Source of the DNA: an uncultured virus (IMG/VR IMGVR_UViG_3300005669_000002)
Lineage: Duplodnaviria > Heunggongvirae > Uroviricota > Caudoviricetes
Strand: one strand, 5' to 3'
DNA: 20,000 bases
IMG/VR virus record: IMGVR_UViG_3300005669_000002
Location: 61,888 to 81,887 of that record
The notes under the pieces are model-generated. The model was not told the DNA's origin and searched no databases. It saw only the letters and a list, made by a program, of their open reading frames with translations. Made by a program: the position numbers and the translations under genes. Below are positions 4,154-20,000 of this stretch, in pieces. How positions within the stretch are numbered: the first letter of the stretch is position 1; each line of letters opens with the position of its first letter.

Positions 4154-6775
4154 TTATAGTACTCGTCCTTTCCCTCTGGCGGCAACTAGAGCAGCGGCTC
4201 GTTCTTTGAGCGATGGAATTGCGCCTCTGGCTTGGCCTACTGCTCGTTGAGCAGTAGCGTCAAACATAGCAGCATTGTTTCGAGCTTGAGCAGCAGCTTC
4301 TAGTGCTTGCTCATGGGCTTCCCCAATAGCCGACATTTTCTCTGCTGCTCTGAAGTCTCGTTGGTCAAGGTCACGGGCTTGGATAGCATCAACCATCCCT
4401 TGAGCAGCGATCGCTTTTTCTCGCAATGCCGCTACCCGTGGGTCTGTTTTAAGGGTTTCGGTCGGTGTAAAACTCCCTCCCAACCGAGCGGCTTGTTGCT
4501 CTAGGTTCTGACGAGCAACCTGATCGGATAGTCGCTCCTCTGTCGGATCGCCCCACACTCTACCCGCAGGTTCTAATGCGTGGTAGTCTCGTTGGTCGGG
4601 AGATATAGAGGTATAGCCTAACTTCTTGCCAGAATCCATGTCCATCAAAACTGTGGCAGCAGTAGGGTCAATCTCTCCCCTGTGCAATCGGTCAGTTGTA
4701 ACAAGAGTGTCCAGGGCATCTGACATATTGCCATAGCCAACAGGGTTCTCATCACCAATTTGGCCCAAGGCAATGTTGTATTTGTTCTGCCCTACCTGAT
4801 TAATTTTCCCGACCTGAGTAAGAGATGGTTGCCCATAGTCAGGCTCCCAAGACTTTTCCTGAGTAATTGAGAATGGTTTTTGTTCTACCACCTCAGGAGC
4901 AGCCGCATTAAATGAACGAGTGGAATCAGTTGAGTAATCCTCCGCAGGCAACGCCACCATTTCCACTTTCCCCGTCTGGGGGTTGGCTCCCACCACTCGC
5001 TTAGTTGTGCTGAGGATGGACAGGGGAGAAGTGGCTAGTTGTTGTTCAACCGTCTTAGCCGCTTGCATCCCCGGAGAGTAATCTCCTCCCGGCATAAGAG
5101 TTACCTTTCCAGCGACATCAGGCAACTGGGCATTCCTCATGCCTCCCCGCCCCACCAACTCATCTAAGGTATAGCGATCACGAGCAATAGGGGCGTAAGG
5201 AGTTCTAATTGGGCCAAGAGATGAAGGATTATCGTAAGTGGTTCCTTCAACAGTTTTCATCTGGAGTTCTGGCCGATTAGTATCAAAATCCCCATAGCGT
5301 TCTTGTTGGCCTTGGATGTGATTGTCATTTCCCCAGCCTTGAGCAGCAATGCCTGAACTTGGTCGGAACGTAGCGATGTCTGCTCCGCTCATACCTTGGC
5401 CAACCCGCGACACATTCTTGCGATCTAGTGGCAGATCCACTACGCCACTGTCAGGGCCAATCGCAGAATTGTAGACATCACTCAGCACATCCATTACAGA
5501 CTCTCGTCCAGGAATGACACGATCTCCAACCTTCACGCCAGGACTGTAGTTGGTCAGTCCTTCTGACTTAGGACGATAAAAATCGTCAACACTAATGTAG
5601 TTGGTGGTTCGGTTGTTGGGTTGTAGCGCCAATTCCGCAATCATTTTGCGGTTGTCTGTAATTGCGTTTTGAATGTGGGCGGGCTGGGCAGCTAATGAAC
5701 CTACGCTCATATTGGTAGCACGACTACGGGTGAGTTCTCCTGAGTCAAGCAAACCTTGAAGAGCAGGGGAAAGAGGCTCACCTACTAGAGTCCTTACTTT
5801 AACCCGTGCATCTGGATCAACTCCCTCCCCTGTCAGTTCTTGGCCAATACCTAATCGTGCCATGTTCTCAGCCAAGAATGCCGCTCGTTCATTCTGTGGA
5901 CGAACCCCCGCAGTGTTTAGCCCCAGCAACTCATAAGGGTCACGGGCCTTCAGGCCAACTAACTCAGTGGATGGCAAGCCCAATAGCTTAGCCATCTCGC
6001 TTCCTTTGAGAGAAGAGTCTTTGACCGTGCGTTGAAATGACTTAGATCCATCCAGTGTGCGGGTACCGTCCGTGCCATACCCACCTCGATAGAGGTTGTT
6101 GAGTCCAGAGTACTTCTGGCTGAGAATATCATTAGCAATGAATTGCTCCCTCAATGCGTTGGCTTTGTCTACTTGGCCTTGCGCTTCAAACTGAGAACCA
6201 ATGTTAGGGTCTGCATATACTCGCTGCCGGACATCTGCTTGGTACGCTGGCGAGTCCCCCAGGTTTTCGTGCAGCAACACCGGAAACGTTTGATTACCAC
6301 CTTGCAGATCAATGTCTCTAGCGCTACGAGGATTGGTTTGGTCGTACCGCCAATTCAGAACATCCCGCAGGTTGGGTGACTGCCCTGCTAGGGCTTCGCG
6401 ACCAACCATTGCTTCCCGATAGTCAGGCCACGCCTCATTACCCAACTGCCGACGATAGGCATCTACTTCTGCCGCTTGCGCTGCTGCTCTTTCCCCTGCC
6501 CTGGCTGCTTGAGCTTCTGGAGAAATAAGGGCAGGGGAAGGAATACCGCCTTGAACTCCAACGGAGCCGATCGAAGGACTTCGCCCCACTGGGGAAGGAA
6601 TGTTTCTAGCAGGGGTTGTTGCTAGGTCAGCCGCAATAGCTTGGTTGACGGTATCTGCGGCTGATTGGATAGTGGGCCTTTGAGACTGGAACCATGCCAT
6701 TGCTTCCTTGGGATTCACCATCCCTTGAGCGCCAGTCGCTTGGCGATAGGCGTCAATCGCTTGAGAGTAAGACAT
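4154..6775 (-). CDS. large Ala/Gly/Gln-rich, Cys-free protein, 873 aa; possible internal virion or ejected protein
   Basis: Long uninterrupted ORF; no recognisable catalytic motif; function inferred from composition only. Confidence 0.85.
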   Translation of the reverse strand: MSYSQAIDAYRQATGAQGMVNPKEAMAWFQSQRPTIQSAADTVNQAIAADLATTPARNIPSPVGRSPSIGSVGVQGGIPSPALISPEAQAARAGERAAAQAAEVDAYRRQLGNEAWPDYREAMVGREALAGQSPNLRDVLNWRYDQTNPRSARDIDLQGGNQTFPVLLHENLGDSPAYQADVRQRVYADPNIGSQFEAQGQVDKANALREQFIANDILSQKYSGLNNLYRGGYGTDGTRTLDGSKSFQRTVKDSSLKGSEMAKLLGLPSTELVGLKARDPYELLGLNTAGVRPQNERAAFLAENMARLGIGQELTGEGVDPDARVKVRTLVGEPLSPALQGLLDSGELTRSRATNMSVGSLAAQPAHIQNAITDNRKMIAELALQPNNRTTNYISVDDFYRPKSEGLTNYSPGVKVGDRVIPGRESVMDVLSDVYNSAIGPDSGVVDLPLDRKNVSRVGQGMSGADIATFRPSSGIAAQGWGNDNHIQGQQERYGDFDTNRPELQMKTVEGTTYDNPSSLGPIRTPYAPIARDRYTLDELVGRGGMRNAQLPDVAGKVTLMPGGDYSPGMQAAKTVEQQLATSPLSILSTTKRVVGANPQTGKVEMVALPAEDYSTDSTRSFNAAAPEVVEQKPFSITQEKSWEPDYGQPSLTQVGKINQVGQNKYNIALGQIGDENPVGYGNMSDALDTLVTTDRLHRGEIDPTAATVLMDMDSGKKLGYTSISPDQRDYHALEPAGRVWGDPTEERLSDQVARQNLEQQAARLGGSFTPTETLKTDPRVAALREKAIAAQGMVDAIQARDLDQRDFRAAEKMSAIGEAHEQALEAAAQARNNAAMFDATAQRAVGQARGAIPSLKERAAALVAARGKGRVL

Positions 6776-9712: not shown

Positions 9713-9911
9713 CACTTCCTCCTGCCCCGTATTGGCGATTGATGTAGGCAACCAGAATGCGCTCAAAAGCCCGAGCTTGCTCTGGTTGGTAGCAAGCCCA
9801 CATATTGGCGATTTCGCCAATTAGTTGATGAAGCTCGTAGGGGATTGCCTCCGATGGACAATGGCAGTCTGCCAAAATCCCCTCAATTAATCGTTGCTTG
9901 AGTTCGTCCAT
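9702..9911 (-). CDS. hypothetical protein, 69 aa
   Basis: GAGGTG RBS; TAATG coupling. Confidence 0.7.
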   Translation of the reverse strand: MDELKQRLIEGILADCHCPSEAIPYELHQLIGEIANMWACYQPEQARAFERILVAYINRQYGAGGSDVP

Positions 9912-10174
9912 TACACCACCTCTTTTTGCGCTGCTAGTGTTAACTGAGTCTGCTCAGTCTCAGTAAAATTTTCAGTCATTGGAACCAGTCCTTTGAATGA
10001 AGCATCAAATAGCTTCTGTCCCAACCGCCAAAGGGCTTCGTCTTCCAGCCACTCTTTAGTATTTAGCTGCACTCGGTAAATGGGTTTCCCCTCAGCATTG
10101 AATATACGTTGAGGCTTGCATCGGAAGATCGCCTCAAAAGTTTCTTGGCTTAATCGAATCTTTGGGTATGCCAT
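9911..10174 (-). CDS. hypothetical protein, 87 aa
   Basis: AGGAG RBS; operon context. Confidence 0.7.
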   Translation of the reverse strand: MAYPKIRLSQETFEAIFRCKPQRIFNAEGKPIYRVQLNTKEWLEDEALWRLGQKLFDASFKGLVPMTENFTETEQTQLTLAAQKEVV

Positions 10175-10379
10175 TACTTTTCTCCTGTTTCAAGCGTTCA
10201 ACTGCCCTTGTGTAAACCTCTTCCAGCACAGCATTCATAATGCTTGCTGTTGGGGTTTGAGAATCCGATTTCATAGAGTCAATTGTTGCCCTGAGTACAT
10301 CAAGGGCATCTTGAATTCCATTTGATCGAGCGTTTTCTATCGCTGCCTGCAATTGCAATTCAACCTCTAACTGACTCAT
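10134..10379 (-). CDS. helical hypothetical protein, 81 aa
   Basis: GGAG RBS and TGATG coupling at 10379. Confidence 0.7.
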   Translation of the reverse strand: MSQLEVELQLQAAIENARSNGIQDALDVLRATIDSMKSDSQTPTASIMNAVLEEVYTRAVERLKQEKSNGIPKDSIKPRNF

Positions 10380-10663
10380 CACTTCTCTCCCTGTCCCTTG
10401 ATTGACTTGAATCCGTACCAAACTCCAACCCCCAGACCTACCCCCATCAACTGAGATTGCCCAGAGGACAGGAGAGAAGCTCTAATTTGATTCAACCCTG
10501 CCGTCCGGTCTAAAAGGGCATTGGTCATGGAAAACATCAACCCCCCACTAATGACCAAGGTTGCTCCCAGGTGTCGTGCCCATTGGGGTAAGGCTTGAAT
10601 TTGTTGGCGACGAATTTCTTGTTTGATGATTGTTGAGTTCCCAAATGCTTTCTGGTAATTCAT
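10379..10663 (-). CDS. two-TM membrane protein, 94 aa
   Basis: ATG 10663 is 11 nt after the upstream stop; LGATLVISGGLMFSM and LMGVGLGVGVWYGF segments. Confidence 0.7.
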   Translation of the reverse strand: MNYQKAFGNSTIIKQEIRRQQIQALPQWARHLGATLVISGGLMFSMTNALLDRTAGLNQIRASLLSSGQSQLMGVGLGVGVWYGFKSIKGQGEK

Positions 10664-10674
10664 TACTCTTGCCC

Positions 10675-11112
10675 CTACTGAATTTGCTGATAGTAATTGC
10701 TGGCGGGAGCTTGACTGGGGATTCGATTCGAGAACATCTGAATCCCGAAATAGCCAAGGAAAAGGCAGGCTACCATTGCCGCCAGTCCCATCACCCAATC
10801 TTGTTGAGCGATCGTGGGGTTGGCAGCTTTCTGCTCCCGCTGGTGGCGACGTTGCTCTGCTAATGCCCAAGAATCGATCGCTTGAGAAACTAGCCCTGCA
10901 ATGTCGTGGTTCCCACCGATGTCCCCGCTTACCGTCACCCCATGCTTAGATAGCTCAATCTCAATGTGAGACTGCGGTATTTGTGGCTGATATTGCTCAG
11001 GCATCCGATAGCTAGTAATTGCCCCAGCCGTGGAGTGGATGGCAGGGGGAGGGTTATTGCCCTCTACCAATTCGTAGCCATCGTCAATCTGCAAATATGT
11101 CGGCATTTCCAT
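10675..11112 (-). CDS. membrane-anchored protein, 145 aa
   Basis: GGAGAGG RBS; WVMGLAAMVACLFLGYFGIQMF TM helix. Confidence 0.75.
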   Translation of the reverse strand: MEMPTYLQIDDGYELVEGNNPPPAIHSTAGAITSYRMPEQYQPQIPQSHIEIELSKHGVTVSGDIGGNHDIAGLVSQAIDSWALAEQRRHQREQKAANPTIAQQDWVMGLAAMVACLFLGYFGIQMFSNRIPSQAPASNYYQQIQ

Positions 11113-11141
11113 AGCCTCTCCCCCTGCCCCATCCTTTGCTA

Positions 11142-11534
11142 CTACTGTTCGTCGCCGTCTTCAAGCGTTACCCCAAATTGTTGTTGGGCCAGCGCCAACA
11201 AAGCATCACCCATTTGGTTGCCCATCGCACCAATATGCTCGATCGTCTTTACTGCTTCCTGTCCCATCGCATGAGTAGCTGCGACACGGGCTTGATGCCC
11301 CATCCCTTGTACCAGTGCAACAGAGCCGTCAGCTAGTGCATTACCAGAGGGGCCTAAGCCCTGTGCTTCTTGGGTTGCCCGAACATCCAATGGTGTAGGG
11401 CTGTCTTGTTCCTTCACTTTTTTCCCCCGTCCCTTCTTAGTCGGGGTGATGGCTGTGGTGGGCTGTTGTTTGCCCGACGCTGGCACCATCATTTCACTGG
11501 GGTCAATGCTGCTCGATTTCACCAGGTCTGTCAT
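11142..11534 (-). CDS. low-complexity hypothetical protein, 130 aa
   Basis: AAGGAGCAAGCAATG start; first gene after a promoter. Confidence 0.8.
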   Translation of the reverse strand: MTDLVKSSSIDPSEMMVPASGKQQPTTAITPTKKGRGKKVKEQDSPTPLDVRATQEAQGLGPSGNALADGSVALVQGMGHQARVAATHAMGQEAVKTIEHIGAMGNQMGDALLALAQQQFGVTLEDGDEQ

Positions 11535-11574
11535 TGCTTGCTCCTTGTTATCTCACTAAACTCTAAGCCTCTTT

Positions 11575-11604
11575 ATAGTAATGGCTCGCTGTTTAGGTTG
11601 TCAA
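11575..11604 (-). promoter_or_regulatory. sigma70-like promoter of the 11.5-6.9 kb gene run
   Basis: TTGACA-18 nt-TACTAT. Confidence 0.65.
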
Positions 11605-11712
11605 CAAGAAAGCGTTAATTCGTGTTCAGTTGCCCACCCTGCAAGACTTTCAAGCCTCACGTTTTACTACACACTTCGTAGCAATGCGGGATCTTTCGAT
11701 TGGCTTGACGAC

Positions 11713-11743
11713 AAAACAAAACCCCTGCCGGAAAGGACAGGGG
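11713..11743 (-). terminator. intrinsic terminator
   Basis: Minus strand CCCCTGTC-CTTTCC-GGCAGGGG followed by TTTTGTTTT. Confidence 0.7.
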
Positions 11744-11928
11744 GGAAGGGAGTTGTAGATGATTGGCGGTGAGTGTTATTCCACAATTGAATACTCGCAC
11801 AAATCGTCAACTGGCAGCACCTTAGGGGCAACGTCTTTAGCAATAAACAGGTGCCGAGACATTGTTCTATTGTTGCCCTCGAAAAAGTCAATACCCCAAA
11901 CTCCTGGGATGCCCCGCTGAATTCTTAC

Positions 11929-13314
11929 CAGGGAAGGGCGGGATGTCTGAAAGCCCTGTCTCTTTAGAGCAGGGATGAAAGACGACTCGTGCGAATTTAT
12001 TCGCATACCGTCTTTAACCAATGTTTTTCCTTGTTGATTCATCATTTTTGCGCTATAATAGTTAGCGTAACTCGATTGATCCTGATGCTAGTCTTTGAGT
12101 TTAAAGCCTACGGAAAGCCCAAACAGTTCGCAGCTATTGATGAAGCGATTCGTACCGTGCAGTTTATTCGGAATAAGTGCATCCGTTTGTGGATGGACAA
12201 CCCGAAAACTAATAAGTATGACTTGAGTAAGCAAAGCGCGATCTTGGCTCGTGAATTTCCGTTCGCTGATCAACTCAATTCAACTGCTCGTCAAGCAGCG
12301 ACAGAACGCGCTTGGACTGCCATATCTCGATTTTATGACAACTGCAAAGCTAAGATTTCTGGCAAGAAAGGTTATCCTAAATTCCAGAAAGATAATCGCT
12401 CGGTTGAGTACAAAGCGTCGGGATGGAAGCTTGCAGGCGATCGTAAATCGATCGCGTTCACCGATAAGAAAGGTATTGGCAGACTGAAAATGAAGGGTAC
12501 TCGCGACCTAAATTTCTATCAGCCAGACCAGATTAAGCGAGTGAGATTGGTAAAGCGAGCAGACGGCTATTACGTTCAATTTTGCATCAAGGTAGATCGA
12601 GAAGAGAAGATCGAACCAACGCATAAAACTATTGGTTTAGATGTTGGCTTAGAGTCTTTCTACACTGATTCACTCGGTAATAAAGTCGAGAATCCTCGGT
12701 TTTATCGGACGGGTGAACAAAGGATGAAGCGGGCGCAACGCCTTGTTTCTCGCAAAGTAAAAGGCTCTAGAAATAGACGTAAGGCTAGAGTTAAATTAGC
12801 TAGAGTTCACCTCAAAATAAGTAGACAACGTAAAGACCACGCTGTAAAGTTGGCGCGGTGCGTAGTTGCATCGAACGATGTCATAGTCTATGAAGATTTG
12901 CGGATTAAGAATCTGGTTAAAAATCATTGTCTGGCTAAGTCAATTAATGACGCTGGCTGGTATCAATTTCGAGTTTGGCTAGAGTATTTTGGTAAGGTTT
13001 TTGGACGGATAACTATTGCTGTCAATCCTGCCTACACGTCCCAAGAATGCTCTCGCTGTGGCACTGTGGTTAAGAAATCTCTTTCAACTCGCACACACAT
13101 TTGTCAGTGTGGCTGTCGATTGGATCGCGACCATAATGCTGGTATCAACATCCTTAACTCAGGATTGGGTACAGTAGGGCATACTGGAACCTCAATGCTA
13201 GACATTGGAATCGCTTGGGGAGATTTGTCCTCTACTGCCGTTGGTGCAAACCTGCGACAGCAAGACGGGTCATTGAACCAAGAATCCCCGTCTCTTTAGA
13301 GCGGGGAGTGTCAA
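11929..13314 (+). mobile_element. IS200/IS605-family element, tnpB-only (non-autonomous)
   Basis: TTAC at 11925-11928; left hairpin AAAG-CCCTGTCTCTTTAGAGCAGGG (11950-11974); right hairpin GAAT-CCCCGTCTCTTTAGAGCGGGG then TCAA end. AAAG/TTAC and GAAT/TCAA match the IS608 guide/cleavage pairs. Confidence 0.85.
12085..13299 (+). CDS. tnpB: RNA-guided endonuclease TnpB, 404 aa
   Basis: RuvC residues GLDVGL, VYEDL, DRDHNA; Zn ribbon CSRC..CQCG; start MLVFEFK; TTGTTG-17-TATAAT upstream. Confidence 0.95.
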   Translation: MLVFEFKAYGKPKQFAAIDEAIRTVQFIRNKCIRLWMDNPKTNKYDLSKQSAILAREFPFADQLNSTARQAATERAWTAISRFYDNCKAKISGKKGYPKFQKDNRSVEYKASGWKLAGDRKSIAFTDKKGIGRLKMKGTRDLNFYQPDQIKRVRLVKRADGYYVQFCIKVDREEKIEPTHKTIGLDVGLESFYTDSLGNKVENPRFYRTGEQRMKRAQRLVSRKVKGSRNRRKARVKLARVHLKISRQRKDHAVKLARCVVASNDVIVYEDLRIKNLVKNHCLAKSINDAGWYQFRVWLEYFGKVFGRITIAVNPAYTSQECSRCGTVVKKSLSTRTHICQCGCRLDRDHNAGINILNSGLGTVGHTGTSMLDIGIAWGDLSSTAVGANLRQQDGSLNQESPSL

Positions 13315-13328
13315 TCCACTACTAAAAG

Positions 13329-13886
13329 CTAAGTTCTCGTCTCTTCTGAGTACAAATACTTTAATCCGTCAATCTCAACAGCATCTTGCCAGCTTGGATC
13401 GAACACTGTGTATAAGGTGCCCCCTGTTACGTTTCGCTCATAGTGCAAGGCATAGGCCTCTTTGAGCTTGCGCCTACTGCGACCATGATTTGGCCCATAC
13501 GCATCAAGGTAGTAGTGCCTGATTGCGTTCCAGCTCGGCTCGTAGACTGGCGTGCTAAAAAGCTGCGTTTCAATCTCTTCATGGAAATGAAACACTGGGA
13601 CGATTCGAGCCTGAAACACATCACCCCAAGGCTCTGCACTCCCGTAATAAATTACTCCTCCTGTCTCGTTCAGGGGATAAACATCCCCTGGTGCAACAAA
13701 TTGCTGCCTCAAGTGACTCTGATACTTGCCACGCTTAAAGACCCATCCTTCGCATGGAGGGAATAATTTTGAATCCTCATGTGGTCGGAACATTTGCAGC
13801 AAGCATTCGTCGCCGAATTTCAGACCTTTCAACCATTGCTCATACTTGCCTTGATTGCAACGGCTTGAACCGATCAATAATCTCAT
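13329..13886 (-). CDS. hypothetical protein, 185 aa
   Basis: AGGAGG RBS; aromatic-rich globular ORF. Confidence 0.8.
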   Translation of the reverse strand: MRLLIGSSRCNQGKYEQWLKGLKFGDECLLQMFRPHEDSKLFPPCEGWVFKRGKYQSHLRQQFVAPGDVYPLNETGGVIYYGSAEPWGDVFQARIVPVFHFHEEIETQLFSTPVYEPSWNAIRHYYLDAYGPNHGRSRRKLKEAYALHYERNVTGGTLYTVFDPSWQDAVEIDGLKYLYSEETRT

Positions 13887-13904
13887 TTTTCCTCCTGCCT
13901 TTGT

Positions 13905-14465
13905 TCACCAATTCTCGTCATCACAGTCTCTCGCAACGACGGCATCCACCTCGATCGCTGGCCCTTCCGGGTTGGTTTCCTTGGCTTGGTATCGCTCCTG
14001 AATGACCGGAGCGAGGAGCTTAGTAAATGCCTTAATGGTGGGAGGATATCCACCTTTGCCGCCAATAGTGACGGTGGTGCCACGACTGACCAACCAATTA
14101 ACTATCTCGGTGTAATTGATGGTGCCATCCTCACTCATGCACTCGGCCCTATGATCCATAAATGCCTTGCGCCCTGGAAGCTCCGCAAGAACGTCACTGC
14201 CTCGCTTGGCTAGGGTGAGGCGATAAAGGTTCATCAAGAAGACCTCATAGGCTTGGTACCCTGTGAGCATTTCTCCCTTTCGCAGACCCAAGCACTTGCA
14301 ATCAGCGGTGATGGACTGAGCGCTAATGGCGAAAAATCGAGCTAAGTCCACCCGCTGGATCACGGGTGAGTTGAGGAACCACTTCTCTGGATCCTCAGGT
14401 ATCTTCTTGGCGGTGAAGTCTGCAAAGGGCAGAGCTTCAGCCACTATTCGTTTTGATTTAGCCAT
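13905..14465 (-). CDS. HTH-containing putative DNA-binding protein, 186 aa
   Basis: Start set at ATG 14465, overlapping the upstream stop; IQRVDLARFFAISAQSITADCKCLGL HTH-like segment. Confidence 0.6.
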   Translation of the reverse strand: MAKSKRIVAEALPFADFTAKKIPEDPEKWFLNSPVIQRVDLARFFAISAQSITADCKCLGLRKGEMLTGYQAYEVFLMNLYRLTLAKRGSDVLAELPGRKAFMDHRAECMSEDGTINYTEIVNWLVSRGTTVTIGGKGGYPPTIKAFTKLLAPVIQERYQAKETNPEGPAIEVDAVVARDCDDENW

Positions 14466-14814
14466 TAAACCCCCACCCCGGCAGACCTGGGAACTCTTGA
14501 ACTTCTGAAACTTTTTCAACGTCTAGTTCAACGTCATAGTTAGTGCCAAAGTCATCCCACCGGATAAACAAAGATAAGCCTTTAGATAGCGGTTTATCGA
14601 CCGTCAAGCAGGCGTACTGCATATTCCCACAACGTCTTGGCAAAAACATTGGCGGTGGGGCCAATTGATACTTGGTAGAAAACCCAAGATCTTGTGCCCC
14701 AATCACTGAGGCATAAATTGTTTGTCTAGTGGCGTCAGACAAATCAGCTTCGTCGTCGTCATACCCAAAACATTCCCGCATGGTTTTTTCTGCAATCTCA
14801 ATTTTGAGAATCAT
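14458..14814 (-). CDS. acidic hypothetical protein, 118 aa
   Basis: GGAGGAAACAATG start. Confidence 0.75.
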   Translation of the reverse strand: MILKIEIAEKTMRECFGYDDDEADLSDATRQTIYASVIGAQDLGFSTKYQLAPPPMFLPRRCGNMQYACLTVDKPLSKGLSLFIRWDDFGTNYDVELDVEKVSEVQEFPGLPGWGFNG

Positions 14815-14838
14815 TGTTTCCTCCCTGTCCCTTGAAAA

Positions 14839-15045
14839 CTACGACTTGACTGGCTTAATCTGCCAGTCTTCTACATCGTCTTGCCCCAAAGACAGAGGAA
14901 GATTTTCATAGCCTGAATCTTCAGGAAATTCAGGTTGACAGACATAAGTTTCAAACTCAACCTCATGAGATTCAACCTTAAAGGTGAATTGAGTCTGATC
15001 GTCTGGGGCGATCGCCGTGTATTCTTGGCCGATTTTTAACTCCAT
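14839..15045 (-). CDS. small highly acidic beta-rich protein, 68 aa (candidate anti-defence)
   Basis: AAGGAGCAAAGCAATG start at 15045; MELKIGQEYTAIAPDDQTQFTFKVESHEVE. Confidence 0.8.
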   Translation of the reverse strand: MELKIGQEYTAIAPDDQTQFTFKVESHEVEFETYVCQPEFPEDSGYENLPLSLGQDDVEDWQIKPVKS

Positions 15046-15079
15046 TGCTTTGCTCCTTAAATTAATTAACTGTGTTGTG

Positions 15080-15106
15080 TGGGCAGTTAATGGGATGCCC
15101 AGCCCA
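15080..15106 (-). ncRNA. H-type pseudoknot, copy D (covariant stem 1)
   Basis: UGGG-C-UGGGCA-U-CCCA-UUAAC-UGCCCA. Confidence 0.75.
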
Positions 15107-15114
15107 CAAACCAA

Positions 15115-16146
15115 CTAGATCAATGGATTCACAAAGCCCACTACCTCATGGGGAAGCAGCAAGGAAGGGGTGTTGAATCCACTTCCCCCAACAGCAGTGC
15201 GACCGCCCCAGCCATCAGGAGTAAACCCGTCTGCTGCTGCCATCTCAGCCTGAGTTAGGACGGGGAAAATCTTGGTCAAGTCAACCGCGTCCTGCCCCGG
15301 ATGTCCTGGGACAGTGCCAAGGGTGTACTGAAACCCCCCGTTGTTGTGGCTGCGACGGGTCAAGGTGACTGGCTTGTAGCCCATTTCTGGGTCTAATTTT
15401 GCCCACGCCATCAGTGTGGCACGGGGATCGACGTAACCCTTGATCTCCGACGTATCGGCATAAGGAATGCCTTCAACAAATGAGCAGCACCCCTTCTCTA
15501 GCAGCTCATCCCGTTTAGCGAGAAGGCTCTCAAAATACTTATCTGCTTCTCCCATCTCCCCTGGCCAGGGACGTTCACCCCGGACAGCCGCGATGATGTG
15601 TTCCACGCTTTGACGAAACGCCGTGGAATAGTAGAGCATCCGCTGCTCTTTGCTCCACTCTTTGCGATCCTTTGGAAGACCCATTTCCTCGCGAAGGGCG
15701 TCCGAGGAGATTTTCATGGCAGCGACTACTTTGAATGCCCAGTCGGGATTGACTTCATCAGCCGGATCCACGCAAAGGTGGTCGCACTCGTGTGCGATCG
15801 CTCTGAGCATTGAGAAGGCTTCGGTACCTGCCCCCCCCGCTAAGTCGCTGGGGCGTAACTGCAAGTACGCGGCAGCCACTACTGAGTCTGCGTCCAACAG
15901 AGTACTCACGCAGACCCAACTACCGCCCATAGCTTCTGGGATAGATCGATCGTCCCATGCTCCCTTCATGGGGGGCATTTCATCAATCTGAACCTTGGCA
16001 TTGCTGGTCTTGTTGTGGTGGTCGTACCACAAGTCCCCCTCCCGTGACTCCCATCCCGGTACTGTGCCATCCAGCATGGCGATCCGGTAGCCCGCATCGA
16101 TAAATGCCTGCAAATCTTCTAGTTCGGTGGTGATGATGTATTCCAT
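15115..16146 (-). CDS. DHH-like phosphoesterase/nuclease with permuted motif order, 343 aa
   Basis: WYDHH, LDADS, HECDH and C-terminal WGGRTAVGGS (DHHA1-like glycine motif); AAGGAGCAAGGCAATG start at 16146. Confidence 0.65.
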   Translation of the reverse strand: MEYIITTELEDLQAFIDAGYRIAMLDGTVPGWESREGDLWYDHHNKTSNAKVQIDEMPPMKGAWDDRSIPEAMGGSWVCVSTLLDADSVVAAAYLQLRPSDLAGGAGTEAFSMLRAIAHECDHLCVDPADEVNPDWAFKVVAAMKISSDALREEMGLPKDRKEWSKEQRMLYYSTAFRQSVEHIIAAVRGERPWPGEMGEADKYFESLLAKRDELLEKGCCSFVEGIPYADTSEIKGYVDPRATLMAWAKLDPEMGYKPVTLTRRSHNNGGFQYTLGTVPGHPGQDAVDLTKIFPVLTQAEMAAADGFTPDGWGGRTAVGGSGFNTPSLLLPHEVVGFVNPLI

Positions 16147-16176
16147 TGCCTTGCTCCTTGTATAAAACGTGTCGGC

Positions 16177-16204
16177 TAGGCAGTTTTCAGTCATGCCCAG
16201 GACT
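16177..16204 (-). ncRNA. H-type pseudoknot, copy C
   Basis: AGUC-C-UGGGCA-U-GACU-GAAAAC-UGCCUA (one G-U pair). Confidence 0.75.
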
Positions 16205-16209
16205 CAGAG

Positions 16210-16332
16210 CTAAATTTCTACAAATCCTTGAAAATTGCACGTATCACACCCACCACCATCACACGTAGGGCAGGACTGCTTGGGATTTGCAGCCCATCCC
16301 AGTTCCTCAAGGAACTGCTGTGAGCCTTCCAT
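16210..16332 (-). CDS. 40-aa zinc-finger microprotein (not in ORF track)
   Basis: MEGSQQFLEELGWAANPKQSCPTCDGGGCDTCNFQGFVEI*; DnaJ-type CxxCxGxG-CxxCxxxG; fills the intergenic gap. Confidence 0.7.
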   Translation of the reverse strand: MEGSQQFLEELGWAANPKQSCPTCDGGGCDTCNFQGFVEI

Positions 16333-16343
16333 ATCCGTACATA

Positions 16344-16604
16344 CTATTCAGCTTTGGTGAAGCCAAAATAATGAACGCTCTGTTGGTCGTTGCTGCGCTC
16401 AACGAACACCCGATCTGGCTCGTTGCGAATTTTGCCGCGAATGTCCTCAACCCAGTCAGGGCAATCTTCCGAACCTAACTCGCAAACATCTCCTGCACAT
16501 CCATCTAGGATGTTTGCGTCATCACAAATGCCGTCATTATCTGCAACTGCCTCGTACCCAAAACCTGAGGCACAAGGTTTGATTGAAAAGTAAGTGACTA
16601 GCAT
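16344..16604 (-). CDS. small acidic protein, 86 aa (candidate anti-defence)
   Basis: AAGGAGAAGCAATG start; Asp/Glu/Cys-rich. Confidence 0.75.
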   Translation of the reverse strand: MLVTYFSIKPCASGFGYEAVADNDGICDDANILDGCAGDVCELGSEDCPDWVEDIRGKIRNEPDRVFVERSNDQQSVHYFGFTKAE

Positions 16605-16658
16605 TGCTTCTCCTTTTTTCTGAACTTTGCAATTCGATGTCTTGTTGTGTCTGTTGCG

Positions 16659-16686
16659 TGGGCAGTTTTCAGTCTTACCCAGGACT
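16659..16686 (-). ncRNA. H-type pseudoknot, copy B
   Basis: AGUC-C-UGGGUA-A-GACU-GAAAAC-UGCCCA (one U-G pair). Confidence 0.75.
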
Positions 16687-16691
16687 GAAAA

Positions 16692-17009
16692 CTATGACAC
16701 TCGCTCCAGGATGCCAAATTCGTAGCCAATCTCCTCAATCTCATCACGACTGAGAATTTTGCCCTCTTGAGGACGGCCCTTTAGCTTAAAGACAATTGCT
16801 TTTTCGCACACAGCTTGGCTGTACACCATCCGATTGACAGGAACTTCAACCCCTAACAACTCCGTCAGAATTTCCGCTGTAGAAGCGTGACCCACCGCAC
16901 TCTGCCACTCAGATCCGGAAATCAAATCACGCACTTCTTGAAGTGTTGCCGAGTCGTAGCCGTAGCAACCGTAGTTGGTCAAAATACTTGTGTTCAAGAT
17001 CGTAATCAT
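16692..17009 (-). CDS. acrIII-1: DUF1874 / YddF-like viral ring nuclease (anti-type III CRISPR AcrIII-1 family), 105 aa
   Basis: ILNTSIL...SAVGHASTAEILTELLGVEVPVNR...AIVFKLKGRPQEGKILSRDEI matches the DUF1874 (STIV B116, B. subtilis YddF) signature, including the catalytic GH and conserved Arg. Confidence 0.88.
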   Translation of the reverse strand: MITILNTSILTNYGCYGYDSATLQEVRDLISGSEWQSAVGHASTAEILTELLGVEVPVNRMVYSQAVCEKAIVFKLKGRPQEGKILSRDEIEEIGYEFGILERVS

Positions 17010-17043
17010 TGCTTTCGCTCCTTAAATTAACTAGTCTGTGGCA

Positions 17044-17071
17044 TGGGCAGTTTTCAGTCTTGCCCAGGACT
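17044..17071 (-). ncRNA. H-type pseudoknot, copy A
   Basis: AGUC-C-UGGGCA-A-GACU-GAAAAC-UGCCCA. Confidence 0.75.
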
Positions 17072-17080
17072 TGAGTGAAC

Positions 17081-17290
17081 CTAAACTTTTACGATGAAAT
17101 ACTTCATGATGGGATCTTCATCCCAACTGTCGTCCCAGTCGGGAAGCCCCGTTGAAATTGGCCCAAACCAAAAGTCGCCTGGGTCTTTCTTGTTGTACCA
17201 GGCCACAACATAGCCTGATTGGCCCTTGTACCGATCGCGGACTTGTTCTGCGATCGCATCGTTCACATTCATATTGTTCTCCTTACCCAT
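17081..17290 (-). CDS. small acidic Trp-rich protein, 69 aa (63 aa from ATG 17272); first gene of the operon
   Basis: Two tandem AAGGAG..ATG starts at 17290 and 17272. Confidence 0.75.
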   Translation of the reverse strand: MGKENNMNVNDAIAEQVRDRYKGQSGYVVAWYNKKDPGDFWFGPISTGLPDWDDSWDEDPIMKYFIVKV

Positions 17291-17375
17291 TGTCTTGCTC
17301 CTTGTTCTCGCTACACTACTCAACCCATCCCATCCGAAGGAACTTTCTCTTCCCTGTCCCTTCTTCTATGTCTCC

Positions 17376-17404
17376 ACTATAGATTAACAATAAGGCAAAA
17401 GCAA
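17376..17404 (-). promoter_or_regulatory. sigma70-like promoter of the acrIII-1 operon
   Basis: TTGCTT-17 nt-TATAGT. Confidence 0.55.
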
Positions 17405-17749
17405 GCAAATACTTCACACCTCGTCAAAGACTTAAGACTATGCTCTTGCCATGACAGTCTCTAAACGAGTCTCAATAGTCTCAAAGTGAGAAGCACATCA
17501 ATTCAAGCCGCTTCGGATCGACAGAATGTTGACAGGGGAAGAGGATCTTGGGAATTTATCGACTGTGTTCAGATCCTCCCCTGCCAAGGATTTAAGCCGG
17601 AATTAATATGAGTCTCATAGGACTGAGGATGAGAATTGTAAAGTGCGCTTAACACTCTCGTCGAAAAACCCCGGAATCCTTGCTGCGTATAGCTTGTAAG
17701 GATTTTTCTTGTTGTCGTCTATTTCTGAAACCCTTGCTGTGAGGGGACT

Positions 17750-19200
17750 GTGAACTACCAGACACCAACCGCTTAGGCGGTATGGTGCTGGCTTCCCAAT
17801 TCATCGGCAACCGCCTCTACAGTCGTAGACTTGCGCCCAAACCGCTTTGGTCTTACATTGCCTCCAAGGGCAGTAGCGCTGGTTCCCAACGCCAATATCC
17901 GCAAGCCTTCATCTCTGATGTTCATTGCTGCATTCACGTCTCTATCATGGTGCTTCTGGCAATGAGGGCAGAGAAACGCCCGTACTGAGAGATCCATTTT
18001 CGGAATCGGCAGCAGTGTCGTATTGCAGAGATGAGACGACGGGAAGAATCGCCCAATTTCGAGGTAAATTTTACCGTCTTGCTCTGCCTTGTACTTGAGC
18101 ATGGTTTGAAACATCCCCCAACCTGCATCAGAAATTGACTTGGCTAGGTTGTGATTCTTGACCATGTTTTTTACTGCCAGATCTTCCACCACAATCACTT
18201 GGTTCTCGTTTACTATCTTGCGGGATAGCTTGTGAAGGAAGTCTTCTCTCACTCGTGAAATCTTGGAATGTACTTTCGCAAGTGCCCGTTTTGCCTTGCG
18301 GCGCTTGCTGGTCGTCTTGTCCTTTTTGCGGGATAGCTTGCGTTGCTTCCGTTTCAGGTTGCGTTCATGTTTTTTGAGATGCTTCGGGTTGTTGAACTTG
18401 GAGCCATCAGAAGTGACGGCAAAATCAATTAATCCAAGGTCAACCCCAATCGCTTTCCCTTCACTGCTAGATTCGGGCTTATCAATCCCATCATCTAGCA
18501 GAACGGAAGTATAATAGCGACCATCCGGAGTCCTAGACACGGTAACGGTCTTGATTTTGCCGAGACAATCCCGGTGGATTTTGGCTTTCACCACCCCCAG
18601 CTTGCCAGGAAATTTGATCTCAGCATTACTCAGAATTTTGACGTTCTGTGGATACTGAATAGACTGGCGACCATGCCGATTTTTGAACGTCGGGTATTGC
18701 GCCCGACCATCAAAAAAGTTGATAAACGCTTGAGACAGATTCAGTACGGATTGCTGCAAGCATTGAGAATAGCATTCTTTCAACCATTCATATTCTTGCT
18801 TCCAGACTGGGATCTGTTTCTTCATGTCGTAGGCTGACAAGCCTTTACCCGTCTCTTTATAGGTTGACGACATCACCGAAAGAGACTGATTCCAAACCCA
18901 GCGCACACACCCGAAAGCCTGGGCAAGATGGGCTTCCTGTTCATCCGTTGGGTAAATTCTGGCTTTGACTGCCTTTAACATGATTACGACCTTTATCACG
19001 CTTATGCAACTATGATAACATCTTGTTGTTGGTTTGTCCCTGATTCTGGGAAACTGGTTTACAGCGTGGGAGATTTGCTCGTTTCCTCCGTCTCCCCTTC
19101 CCGCGCCTTCGGCATAGGTCAAGGGAACGTCGTCAACTCGCTCGCATTCATCCCGACGCTCACCCGAAGCGGGTAGAGCGCGGGGCTTCTGCTGCTTCAG
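17750..19200 (-). mobile_element. second IS200/IS605-family tnpB-only element
   Basis: Left end (TTAG)CTGAAGCAGCAGAAGCCCCGCGCTCTACCCGCTTCGGGTGAGCGTCGGG hairpin; right end GAAGCCAGCACCATACCGCCTAAGCGGTTGGTGTCTGGTAGTTCAC; no tnpA; left boundary uncertain by a few nt. Confidence 0.85.
17773..18981 (-). CDS. tnpB: RNA-guided endonuclease TnpB, 402 aa
   Basis: MLKAVKARIYPT...FGCVRWVWN N-terminal HTH; RuvC GVDLGL, VVEDL, DRDVNA. Confidence 0.95.
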   Translation of the reverse strand: MLKAVKARIYPTDEQEAHLAQAFGCVRWVWNQSLSVMSSTYKETGKGLSAYDMKKQIPVWKQEYEWLKECYSQCLQQSVLNLSQAFINFFDGRAQYPTFKNRHGRQSIQYPQNVKILSNAEIKFPGKLGVVKAKIHRDCLGKIKTVTVSRTPDGRYYTSVLLDDGIDKPESSSEGKAIGVDLGLIDFAVTSDGSKFNNPKHLKKHERNLKRKQRKLSRKKDKTTSKRRKAKRALAKVHSKISRVREDFLHKLSRKIVNENQVIVVEDLAVKNMVKNHNLAKSISDAGWGMFQTMLKYKAEQDGKIYLEIGRFFPSSHLCNTTLLPIPKMDLSVRAFLCPHCQKHHDRDVNAAMNIRDEGLRILALGTSATALGGNVRPKRFGRKSTTVEAVADELGSQHHTA

Positions 19201-19243
19201 CTAAAAATGAGGCAAGGGAGAGGATATACACACTCTCTCTACA

Positions 19244-19573
19244 ATGATTGATAGAATAAAGAAGCCGCTAACGGCAATGAGTCGTGAAGGCGTGGCTTTG
19301 ACTTTTCAAATAGCAGAGTATTATTGCGTCTCTGAATCCGTAGCAAGAGACAATGTTCGTCGGCATCGAGACGAATTTGAGTTTGACGGGCTGAGACTGC
19401 TCCGTGGTAAAGCGTCAAAGGATGCGTGTGAGACAATCTCACACGGTTCTATTTCTGGCGCAGAAAAAACGTCAAATCTTACAATTTGGACTCCTCGCGC
19501 AGCATTAAGACTTGGAATGCTGCTTTTCCGGCCAGCCCCAGCCCTTGCACCTCCTCTAGATGCCATGCTCTAG
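19244..19573 (+). pseudogene. probably C-terminally truncated phage antirepressor-like (ORF6N-like) DNA-binding domain
   Basis: IAEYYxV..VRRHRDEFExDG..LRGK..LTIWTPRAALRLGMLL matches a family that, as I recall, continues RDSxVAKxVR; here it turns into a Pro-rich tail. Confidence 0.55.
19321..19566 (-). pseudogene. regulator N-terminus (RGGARAGAGRK, AT-hook-like) fused to antisense read-through
   Basis: Start overlaps the upstream gene's end; after residue 14 the sequence is the antisense of the convergent gene. Confidence 0.5.
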
Positions 19574-19924
19574 CGGAGAGACTAGAGATTTATTGATCTC
19601 GTCAATTAACCGCTCCACCCATTCAGCGATTATACTGTTCCACTCCTCATCCCAATTGGAGAGTGAGTCGAACGCTTCCTTCCAATGCGAAAAGGAATCA
19701 CCACACTGAACGCCATCAGCGAAGAAAGCCCAGCCATCCAGTTCACCACACTGAACGCCATCAGCGAAGAAAGCCCAGCCATCCAGTAACCTACCATTCT
19801 CGAAAATGCACTGCCCCAAGCGGGCAGGCGAATCGGCGTGAAACTTCCCATCGATTAACTTAGCCCAAATGCCCCAAGAGGCATCGTATTGAATGGAGCG
19901 GACTAAATCTTTTAATGTAGCCAT
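19556..19924 (-). CDS. acidic Trp-rich hypothetical protein with an internal 15-aa duplication, 122 aa
   Basis: AAGGAG 8 nt before ATG 19924. Confidence 0.75.
   Translation of the reverse strand: MATLKDLVRSIQYDASWGIWAKLIDGKFHADSPARLGQCIFENGRLLDGWAFFADGVQCGELDGWAFFADGVQCGDSFSHWKEAFDSLSNWDEEWNSIIAEWVERLIDEINKSLVSPLEHGI
19698..19787. repeat. perfect 45-bp tandem duplication
   Basis: TCACCACACTGAACGCCATCAGCGAAGAAAGCCCAGCCATCCAGT twice. Confidence 0.95.
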
Positions 19925-19958
19925 CGTCTTCACTCCTTGCCTTGTTCTCTACAATTCA

Positions 19959-19990
19959 AGTATTACACACTCTTCTGAAATATGCAATAC
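19959..19990 (-). promoter_or_regulatory. sigma70-like promoter with inverted repeat
   Basis: TTGCAT-17 nt-AATACT with TGn extension; GTATTACA (19960-67) and TGCAATAC (19983-90) are a 7/8 inverted repeat over the -10 and -35. Confidence 0.5.
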
Positions 19991-20000
19991 ATTTATCAAG

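Follow-up and report, generated by a model that had tools for sequence, protein, structure and literature searches.

The stretch of DNA analysed here (hereafter the window) is the terminal 20 kb (positions 61888-81887) of an 81,887-bp virus record, IMG/VR IMGVR_UViG_3300005669_000002, which has terminal repeats and is rated 100% complete by CheckV; an exact 21-bp repeat stands at the ends of the phage genome. Within the window, nine open reading frames (ORFs) on the minus strand run from 17290 to 13329. One of them encodes a 105-amino-acid (aa) ring nuclease of the DUF1874/AcrIII-1 type and another a 343-aa protein with a predicted DHH/DHHA1 phosphoesterase fold, while the other seven look coding and match nothing known. 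A TnpB gene lies on each side of the run. An earlier reading of this DNA, made from its letters alone (the sequence-only reading), had described the run as a promoter-led anti-defence island anchored by the ring nuclease; it had left out the 185-aa ORF, as well as both bracketing TnpB genes.

The ORFs are separated by 71, 87, 11, 63, 69, 24 and 18 nt, with one 8-nt overlap. When codon usage is modelled on 34 long phage ORFs (whose own scores are 0.20 ± 0.06), the proposed frame scores best for all nine (0.11-0.32, with off-frame scores of about 0), and a Shine-Dalgarno-like site (AAGGAG/GGAGG-type) lies ahead of the ATG in eight, the exception being the 40-aa ORF.

That the 105-aa protein is a true member of the AcrIII-1/Crn2 family, as had been proposed, is established as firmly as sequence allows. 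It matches PF08960 (STIV_B116-like/DUF1874) with an E-value of 6.2e-24 and 84.5 bits (cut-off 26; 83.8 bits in the whole-genome scan), its residues 2-97 lying on profile positions 1-100 of 101. It also matches phrog_5063 (1e-19) and a PADLOC model named Csx16 (1.6e-23). The structures matched by its sequence are AFV3-109 (2j6b, E 2.4e-15), Csx1-Crn2 fusions, STIV B116 and SIRV1 gp29. Both gp29 and the bacterial protein YddF are described as cleaving cyclic tetra-adenylate (cA4) to A2>P, rapidly in vitro; for gp29, H47 is given as the absolutely conserved general acid, and the cA4 contacts include R85, R66, S49, T50 and Q81 (10.1101/778746). A profile of 41 homologues of the 105-aa protein aligns with gp29 (2x4i) without gaps at an offset of +6, so that positions 26-94 correspond to 2x4i residues 32-100. 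The catalytic H47 of gp29 thereby falls on H41, and four of the five cA4 contacts checked are kept (S43=S49, T44=T50, R60=R66 and R79=R85), the fifth being changed from Q81 in gp29 to K75. The N-terminal gp29 contacts N8, S11 and N13 fall outside the ungapped stretch and are not mapped with certainty. H41, T44, R60 and R79 are invariant among the 41 homologues. A word-indexed search returned 337 homologues, with 53-70% identity among the matches listed, one of which, from an Acaryochloris metagenome-assembled genome (MAG), is named "YddF family protein". The gene is viral and lies outside any CRISPR locus. A published survey gives AcrIII-1 in 36 of 28,114 phage genomes (PMC12409355), and our literature search found no paper naming both "cyanophage" and "AcrIII-1".

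In the mechanism that we propose, the ring nuclease would work as a dimer, bind cA4 made by a type III CRISPR system of the host and, using H41 as the general acid, cleave this to A2>P, which would silence CARF effectors such as CARF-RelE. The label "cyanophage" is a fair one, since the TnpB on the right-hand side of the block shares 80-89% of its amino acids with counterparts from cyanobacteria such as Microseira, Leptolyngbya and Microcoleus, and the best 80 relatives are cyanobacterial or come from unnamed MAGs. Five cyanobacterial genomes hold the closest TnpB relatives, and Cas10/Cmr2 scores over the cut-off in three of them. Two of these loci (G002 and G003) belong to type III-D and encode a CARF-RelE effector within the operon; two Csx3 genes lie near the G003 locus. 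A target for the ring nuclease is thus plausible, because type III-D systems with CARF effectors occur in the candidate host lineages. These two operons, from Microseira-like genomes (G002:C140 and G003:C112), also contain a PD-DExK protein and a PDC-S03-like gene, with a gene for a helix-turn-helix (HTH) WYL protein upstream.

The same gene could nevertheless encode a protein that is no effective anti-CRISPR protein (Acr) in a real infection, if it is expressed too late or has another host target. SIRV2 gp37 offers a model for both variants: it is reported to show no Acr activity in native infection, where it is expressed middle/late, and to inhibit a host lysine methyltransferase (10.1101/2023.01.10.523387). 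In the block, a promoter consensus scan did no better than shuffled sequences (3 sites against 4.2 ± 1.8 in the shuffles). The description of the run as promoter-led is therefore not supported; the sole promoter-like site on the gene strand, at 17664-17635, lies about 345 nt upstream of the start of the first gene (17290), and the right TnpB gene ends (17773) about 110 nt upstream of this site. On the other side, the invariance of the catalytic and cA4-binding residues across the 41 homologues argues for selection on ring-nuclease chemistry, the two relatives YddF and gp29 have the in vitro activity described above, and the gene is placed upstream of replication genes. The block as a whole sits within a long minus-strand, non-structural arm of the genome that encodes a single-stranded DNA-binding protein, a D5-type primase-helicase, a dUTPase, Dam, HTH, KilA-N and Bro-N proteins, and an EAL-domain protein. 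We regard a protein with no anti-CRISPR effect as improbable.

The second enzyme of the block had been called a phosphoesterase. Sequence families give this no backing: the 343-aa protein matches no Pfam family at E<=0.1 (DHH PF01368 and DHHA1 PF02272 included) and has no PHROG, NCBIfam, PADLOC or PDB sequence match. The start at 16146 was set by the repeated ribosome-binding context described below. A large protein collection yielded 14 relatives, and the 14-sequence alignment has 42 invariant columns, among them D26-G-T28, D38, D42-H43-H44, D85-A-D87, C121-D122, W313, G315, R316, V319, G320, G321 and S322. The last of these belong to a glycine motif in the C-terminal lobe, WGGRxxVGGSG (313-323), in which G314 is kept in at least 90%. 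The acidic and histidine clusters appear to be arranged canonically along the sequence (I, II, DHH, IV); their spacing is compressed, and motif I reads D-G-T.

An AlphaFold2 model computed from the alignment has a mean predicted local distance difference test (pLDDT) of 89.2 and a predicted template-modelling score of 0.86. Searched against the PDB with Foldseek, it matches PggH (7d62) first (E 3.9e-5, probability 1.00), followed by a PAP phosphatase (8a8k) and GdpP (both with probability 1.00), TM1595 (0.99), RecJ/Cdc45, Rv2837c, NrnA and DhhP. Among the 48 Foldseek matches listed, 44 belong to the DHH superfamily; the exceptions are the alanyl-tRNA synthetase structures 9a7x, 2zvf and 3wqy, and the uncharacterised Helicobacter pylori protein 6mtz. 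VIA-align places 5yh1 at Z 11.2 (root-mean-square deviation (rmsd) 4.9, 262 residues aligned) and PggH at Z 10.1 (rmsd 4.2, 240 aligned), both matches spanning residues 1-343, and NrN at Z 7.9 (rmsd 4.5, 198 aligned), and all 50 matches listed are of the DHH superfamily. The term "phosphoesterase" is thus right as to fold, since both structural searches return this superfamily. According to the model, the protein is a two-lobed DHH/DHHA1 enzyme with invariant DHH and acidic clusters.

The genes found together with the enzyme suggest a link to cyclic di-GMP (c-di-GMP). The phage itself encodes a 333-aa EAL protein (C1:7131-8132, minus strand, outside the window; Pfam E 4e-44) that keeps the catalytic motifs EAL, DDFG, K-x-D, EGVE and QGY. 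Full-length relatives of the 343-aa protein, with 34-42% identity, were found in 11 IMG/VR records, and three of these records encode an EAL domain (G407, G412 and G413, the last two being near-duplicates). As a control, we took 50 of 80 viral loci bearing DUF1874, of which 49 were usable, and found EAL in none of the 49 records (Fisher p = 0.005, or 0.026 with the near-duplicates counted once). Approached from the EAL side, a motif scan of viral contigs confirmed 22 EAL loci, and the 19 others have no enzyme of the 343-aa type; a scan with a single sequence gave one weak locus, while an alignment-based scan succeeded. Among 401 cyanobacterial genomes sampled across the phylum, just one carries the 343-aa enzyme, and there its gene is directly upstream, on the same strand, of a MASE1-PAS-GGDEF diguanylate cyclase gene, with a large sensor kinase adjoining. 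This copy (G052:C1:2045000-2064999, 9901-10905) lies between a Uma2 endonuclease gene and the cyclase gene, downstream of an MHYT-PAS-GAF hybrid kinase gene.

The co-occurrence with EAL, the adjacency to GGDEF and the position of PggH as the top structural match together make a role in c-di-GMP turnover the best-supported mechanism for the 343-aa enzyme. The phage EAL protein would convert c-di-GMP to pGpG, and the 343-aa enzyme would then convert pGpG to GMP, acting as a metal-dependent hydrolase for short, linear, pGpG-type nucleotides and not as a partner of the ring nuclease. We give it roughly an even chance that the enzyme finishes c-di-GMP breakdown in this way. If it does, the phage would encode a complete c-di-GMP degradation pathway, a new mode of rewiring or disarming the host; if the protein instead degraded immune messengers, it would represent a new class of anti-defence enzyme.

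The same structural matches would also suit an enzyme of nucleotide salvage, a nanoRNase or pAp phosphatase that turns host RNA into mononucleotides for phage DNA synthesis and has no part in signalling. Stand-alone NrnA, the PAP phosphatase 8a8k and TM1595 are all among the best matches, the phage encodes a dUTPase, and in one viral locus (L015) the relative of the 343-aa gene lies near genes for ribonucleotide reductase, thymidylate kinase and an HD_4 protein. However, such a nucleotide-metabolism neighbourhood occurs in only one of nine annotated loci, and a signalling role is favoured by the co-occurrence with EAL and by the neighbouring GGDEF gene. Salvage as the sole function is a long shot in our estimate, although hydrolysis of pGpG and of nanoRNA are not mutually exclusive, so this explanation overlaps with the preferred one.

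We now turn to the block as a whole, for which the sequence-only reading had put forward the neighbours of the ring nuclease as candidate anti-defence proteins. In its strongest form, this proposal makes the block a coherent island: the ring nuclease acts on cA4; the 343-aa protein is a viral counterpart of NrN that removes a second signal or A2>P, cyclic dinucleotides or SAM-AMP; and the acidic proteins block Cas, restriction or other defence proteins, either stoichiometrically or by mimicking DNA. Several features of the locus speak for it. The anchor is a known Acr; the genes lie close together on a single strand and, apart from the 40-aa ORF, have their own ribosome-binding sites; and the DNA is plastic, lying between two insertion elements. 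The acidic nature of the 69-, 86-, 68- and 118-aa products, as originally noted, was confirmed, and that of the 40-aa product can be added. The acidic cluster is real, since these five clustered ORFs have isoelectric points (pI) of 4.05-4.48, and a pI below 4.5 is found in merely 6% of the 131 heuristic ORFs of the genome. Furthermore, the DHH-family enzyme NrN is reported to degrade SAM-AMP, a type III signal, and nothing else, and its closest structures are given as PggH and GdpP, the same structural neighbours as those of the 343-aa protein (PMC10600005).

Comparison across viruses, however, does not support this proposal. We located 80 other viral loci bearing DUF1874 with an alignment-based scan (a scan with a single sequence returned nothing), and in none of them did the flanks of up to 4 kb contain one of the eight neighbours (tblastn E<=0.01, and profiles of the two larger families). 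Conversely, DUF1874 is absent from all 11 viral records with relatives of the 343-aa protein, and within 8 kb of these relatives there are no other genes of the block. Instead, the Pfam neighbourhoods of the relatives vary by locus (baseplate, KilA-N, HTH, ribonucleotide reductase/thymidylate kinase/HD_4, MoxR-VWA and recombination directionality factor), and the enzyme tracks EAL and GGDEF. PHROGs, NCBIfam and PADLOC returned nothing significant for any neighbour of the ring nuclease, the weak PHROG matches of the 40-aa and 86-aa proteins having E-values of at least 0.01. CorA was found neither in the window nor in the type III loci of the candidate host lineages, of which three were examined. 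The block has no conserved regulator resembling the Aca (anti-CRISPR-associated) proteins, and the 186-aa protein, which had been described as HTH-like, cannot be called Aca-type: it matches nothing in Pfam, PHROG, NCBIfam, PADLOC or the PDB by sequence, and its ESM-Atlas leads to MerR/HTH clusters are sub-threshold (score <=0.89, TM <=0.36). The proposal that the neighbours are anti-defence candidates thus keeps its anchor, while for the neighbours it rests on adjacency in one phage and has no comparative support. An anti-defence island is only a guess, neither supported by comparison nor refuted, and we consider the coherent version unlikely.

An extended version would see the phage as carrying a kit of erasers for several signals, with AcrIII-1 directed at cA4, the EAL protein at c-di-GMP, the 343-aa enzyme at linear products (A2>P and pGpG) or at SAM-AMP or a dinucleotide of the cyclic-oligonucleotide-based defence systems known as CBASS, and the acidic microproteins inhibiting defence proteins. 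Such a kit would leave filamentous cyanobacteria with several of their nucleotide-based immune systems blinded, and removal of the linear products would stop their feedback. We think there is only a slim chance that the genes work together in this way.

The interpretation that we prefer, with a probability of about 0.55, is that the run is a patchwork accessory block within the non-structural arm and not a conserved anti-defence operon, with the ring nuclease and the pGpG-type enzyme in the roles described above. The small acidic proteins may serve in host takeover or as inhibitors. Several observations weigh against this interpretation. As to the block, five clustered small acidic proteins beside a known Acr have the classic look of an acr locus, a scarcity of homologues such as theirs is also typical of Acrs, and our gene-order comparison covers loci more distant than the closest relatives of this phage, whose proteins are 79-95% identical. 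As to the link with c-di-GMP, the EAL association comes from three records of two lineages besides this phage, and shared ancestry may contribute to it; the EAL gene of this phage is about 11 kb from the 343-aa gene and not adjacent to it; and the adjacency to GGDEF is a single case. As to the enzyme itself, the invariant Asp and His clusters are candidates for the canonical metal site, judged by their order in the sequence and not by residue-level superposition. An hhalign comparison with an alignment of cyanobacterial NrnA-like DHH-DHHA1 proteins gave a probability of 0.15% over 8 columns (GGRxxVGG/GGRMMAGG); the cyanobacterial protein carries GGGRxxAGG, with which the WGGRxxVGGSG motif pairs without significance, and the role of a GGGH-type glycine motif in the DHHA1 lobe is taken from a review (PMC9779919). 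The same review states that DHH folds do not reveal the substrate, and the substrate cannot be read from the fold of the 343-aa protein either, since NrN shares the nearest structures PggH and GdpP. An anti-defence role that the small acidic ORFs may have is contradicted by nothing and is a matter for INTERFERENCE assays.

A patchwork origin also fits a repeated element inside the block. A leader of about 38-65 nt precedes four genes only, those for the 105-, 86-, 343- and 68-aa proteins. The layout is common to all four: the TAG stop of the previous gene is followed by AGTCCTGGGCAnGACTGAAAACTGCCCAyrCaACAGA, a spacer and then AAGGAGcaaaGCAATG. A near-identical ribosome-binding site and start come after the leader (AGTCCTGGGCAnGACTGAAAACTGCCCA...). 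The second copy has a predicted folding energy of -19.9 kcal/mol (z -3.6), and the other three have no strong fold. We found the leader in this form nowhere else in the phage, and its exact pattern was not found in the viral contigs of IMG/VR. It is not a host repeat, because 301 cyanobacterial genomes gave one match with two mismatches, the same number as a control with the reversed pattern. A promoter or terminator consensus and a consistent hairpin were considered and rejected, on the basis of the consensus scan and of the folding of the four copies. We read the element as a boundary shared by cassettes or as a 5′ leader. It could be a site of processing or binding, or a trace left by recombination, and it is in keeping with a block put together from cassettes that were acquired separately. 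The positions of the leader copies are listed in Table 1 together with those of the genes.

Table 1. Genes and repeated leaders of the accessory block and its flanks, ordered along the direction of transcription of the block (positions are those of the window)
Feature	Position	Strand	Remarks
Second TnpB	17773..19122	-	5′ side of block; Pfam; likely start 18987
69-aa ORF	17081..17290	-	First of run; acidic, pI 4.48; AAGGAG before ATG; no family match
Leader copy 1	17034..17071	-	Core (minus strand) AGTCCTGGGCAAGACTGAAAACTGCCCA; between TAG stop of 69-aa ORF and ribosome-binding site of ring nuclease
105-aa ring nuclease (DUF1874/AcrIII-1-type)	16692..17009	-	PF08960 match
Leader copy 2	16649..16686	-	Sole copy with strong predicted RNA hairpin, 11-bp stem
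86-aa ORF	16344..16604	-	pI 4.18, net -11; 5 Cys; no family or PDB match
40-aa ORF	16210..16332	-	pI 4.05; CPTC...CDTC, 4 Cys; starts 11 nt past preceding stop; no clear ribosome-binding site
Leader copy 3	16167..16204	-	Before 343-aa gene
343-aa divergent DHH/DHHA1-fold phosphoesterase	15115..16146	-	Predicted fold
Leader copy 4	15073..15102	-	Degenerate; before 68-aa gene
68-aa ORF	14839..15045	-	Acidic, pI 4.05, net -12; no family match
118-aa ORF	14458..14814	-	Acidic, pI 4.38; no family or PDB match
186-aa ORF	13905..14465	-	Start overlaps 118-aa gene by 8 nt
185-aa ORF	13329..13886	-	Unnamed family; beta-rich N-domain and ferredoxin-like C-domain (model)
TnpB (IS605 OrfB)	11989..13299	+	3′ side of block; Pfam OrfB_IS605 and Cas12f1-like_TNB

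The small proteins of the run proved hard to place. None of the 69-, 86-, 40-, 68- and 118-aa proteins has a Pfam, NCBIfam or PADLOC match, and no deep homologue search was made for them. A PDB sequence search with the 343-, 118-, 86- and 186-aa proteins gave nothing below E 0.39, and tblastn of the 343-, 185- and 186-aa proteins against isolated phages gave no match. The zinc microprotein of the sequence-only reading corresponds to the 40-aa ORF, for which the four cysteines stand and a zinc ribbon is possible. For the 186-aa protein we found only three close homologues and no copy in the 401 cyanobacterial genomes, a lone cyanobacterial match at E 0.009 being taken as spurious because it has two stops inside. 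We also dropped as borderline a bias in stop codons (TAG in 7 of the 9 genes of the block against 32 of 75 elsewhere, p 0.049).

The 185-aa protein at the end of the run belongs to a family that comprises 67 representative clusters (E<=1e-3). No Pfam domain was found in any of 56 scanned members, and all ten relatives that were looked up come from metagenomes and are unnamed; their contigs reach 58 kb. Its AlphaFold2 model has a pLDDT of 92.9 and no fold match at E<=1e-3 in the PDB or BFVD. VIA-align finds a generic ferredoxin-like C-domain (residues 120-185; Z 7.0, rmsd 2.1, 61 aligned), a score within the range of chance arrangements. A pattern search of viral contigs was negative, a search of the 401 cyanobacterial genomes brought up no member, and ESM Atlas gave nothing usable. 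The N-domain of this confident model has no known fold.

The two insertion elements that flank the block are TnpB-only members of the IS605 family and are unrelated to each other (33% mutual identity). Hairpin-like repeats flank the left TnpB gene at 11951-11975 and 13283-13307, and nucleotide similarity around the right one extends over about 17745-19207. In a single study, four DNA runs yielded contigs identical to the window, and no variant that lacks the insertion elements was found among them; a look-up of RNA runs containing the phage listed none. A metagenome scan with the 343-aa protein returned, as its sole match, a contig identical to this phage (14,680 of 14,680 bases), which leaves no close relatives for comparison. 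The DNA of the block has no match among isolated phages and plasmids, and an Rfam search of window positions 11000-20000 gave none.

Elsewhere in the genome, a plus-strand block from about 14.7 to 45.3 kb encodes a C39-like peptidase and a 901-aa protein (C1:26744-29449) that bears an intein splicing domain (Pfam E 8e-16). The largest ORF of the window, which encodes 873 aa (4154-6775, minus strand), matches nothing in Pfam, NCBIfam or PADLOC, and the majority of the remaining ORFs of the window are likewise unannotatable. A 109-aa ORF (19244-19573, plus strand) has a weak match to the ORF6N domain (E 5e-4, below the cut-off) and one to PADLOC PDC-M59A (7e-6). Close to the end of the record, a 45-nt unit occurs in two perfect tandem copies (19698-19787) within a 125-aa ORF.

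Anti-CRISPR loci are commonly recognised by guilt by association, with acr genes accompanied by a conserved aca gene for an HTH regulator. The block shares with acr-aca loci a known Acr beside several small acidic proteins of no known family, encoded on one strand. It differs from them in having no recognisable or conserved HTH gene, and in that no neighbour recurs by the anchor in the 80 loci. A second comparison concerns the leader. The hyperplastic regions of T4-type phages contain PeSL elements, repeated promoter/stem-loop sequences that serve as cassette boundaries. In both cases a short repeated intergenic element stands ahead of several small accessory genes and could permit the shuffling of cassettes; unlike PeSL elements, however, the leader has no promoter consensus, only one of its four copies folds strongly, and it is confined to this block.

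The ring nuclease is an ordinary further member of a known anti-CRISPR family. With SIRV1 gp29 (2x4i, 6scf), AFV3-109 (2j6b), STIV B116 (2j85) and Bacillus subtilis YddF, it shares its size, a Pfam match along the full length, the catalytic His and the Ser, Thr, Arg and Arg contacts. It differs in having K75 where gp29 has Q81 and in its cyanobacterial host, and it is known here from its sequence. With it, the DUF1874 family reaches a cyanophage for which the candidate host lineages bear cA4-type type III-D systems.

The 343-aa protein invites comparison with two kinds of enzyme. With NrN of Bacteroides fragilis, which belongs to a CorA-containing type III-B system (9lq9-9lqc), it shares the superfamily and the nearest structures, PggH and GdpP, and the degradation of a type III messenger would suit a gene beside AcrIII-1. 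However, NrN scores below PggH in the structural comparison, the three host-lineage loci include no locus of the CorA/SAM-AMP type, and there is no co-occurrence with DUF1874 elsewhere. With the pGpG-specific PggH of Vibrio cholerae, and with NrnA, Pde2/DhhP, TM1595, Rv2837c and the PAP phosphatase, the protein has in common a predicted two-lobed fold over its full length, a DHH tripeptide with flanking Asp clusters that may form the metal site, and a Gly-rich GGR..GG motif in the C-terminal lobe that may correspond to theirs. It departs from this group in having no Pfam DHH or DHHA1 match, a motif I of D-G-T instead of D-x-D, compressed spacing of its motifs, and lobes held apart by a long helical insert (about residues 86-217), and its family is almost confined to phages. 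Its genomic link to enzymes of c-di-GMP metabolism would suit an enzyme of the PggH type. It is the more useful result of this analysis: a confidently folded phage family of the DHH/DHHA1 type that sequence databases have missed and that travels with EAL genes.

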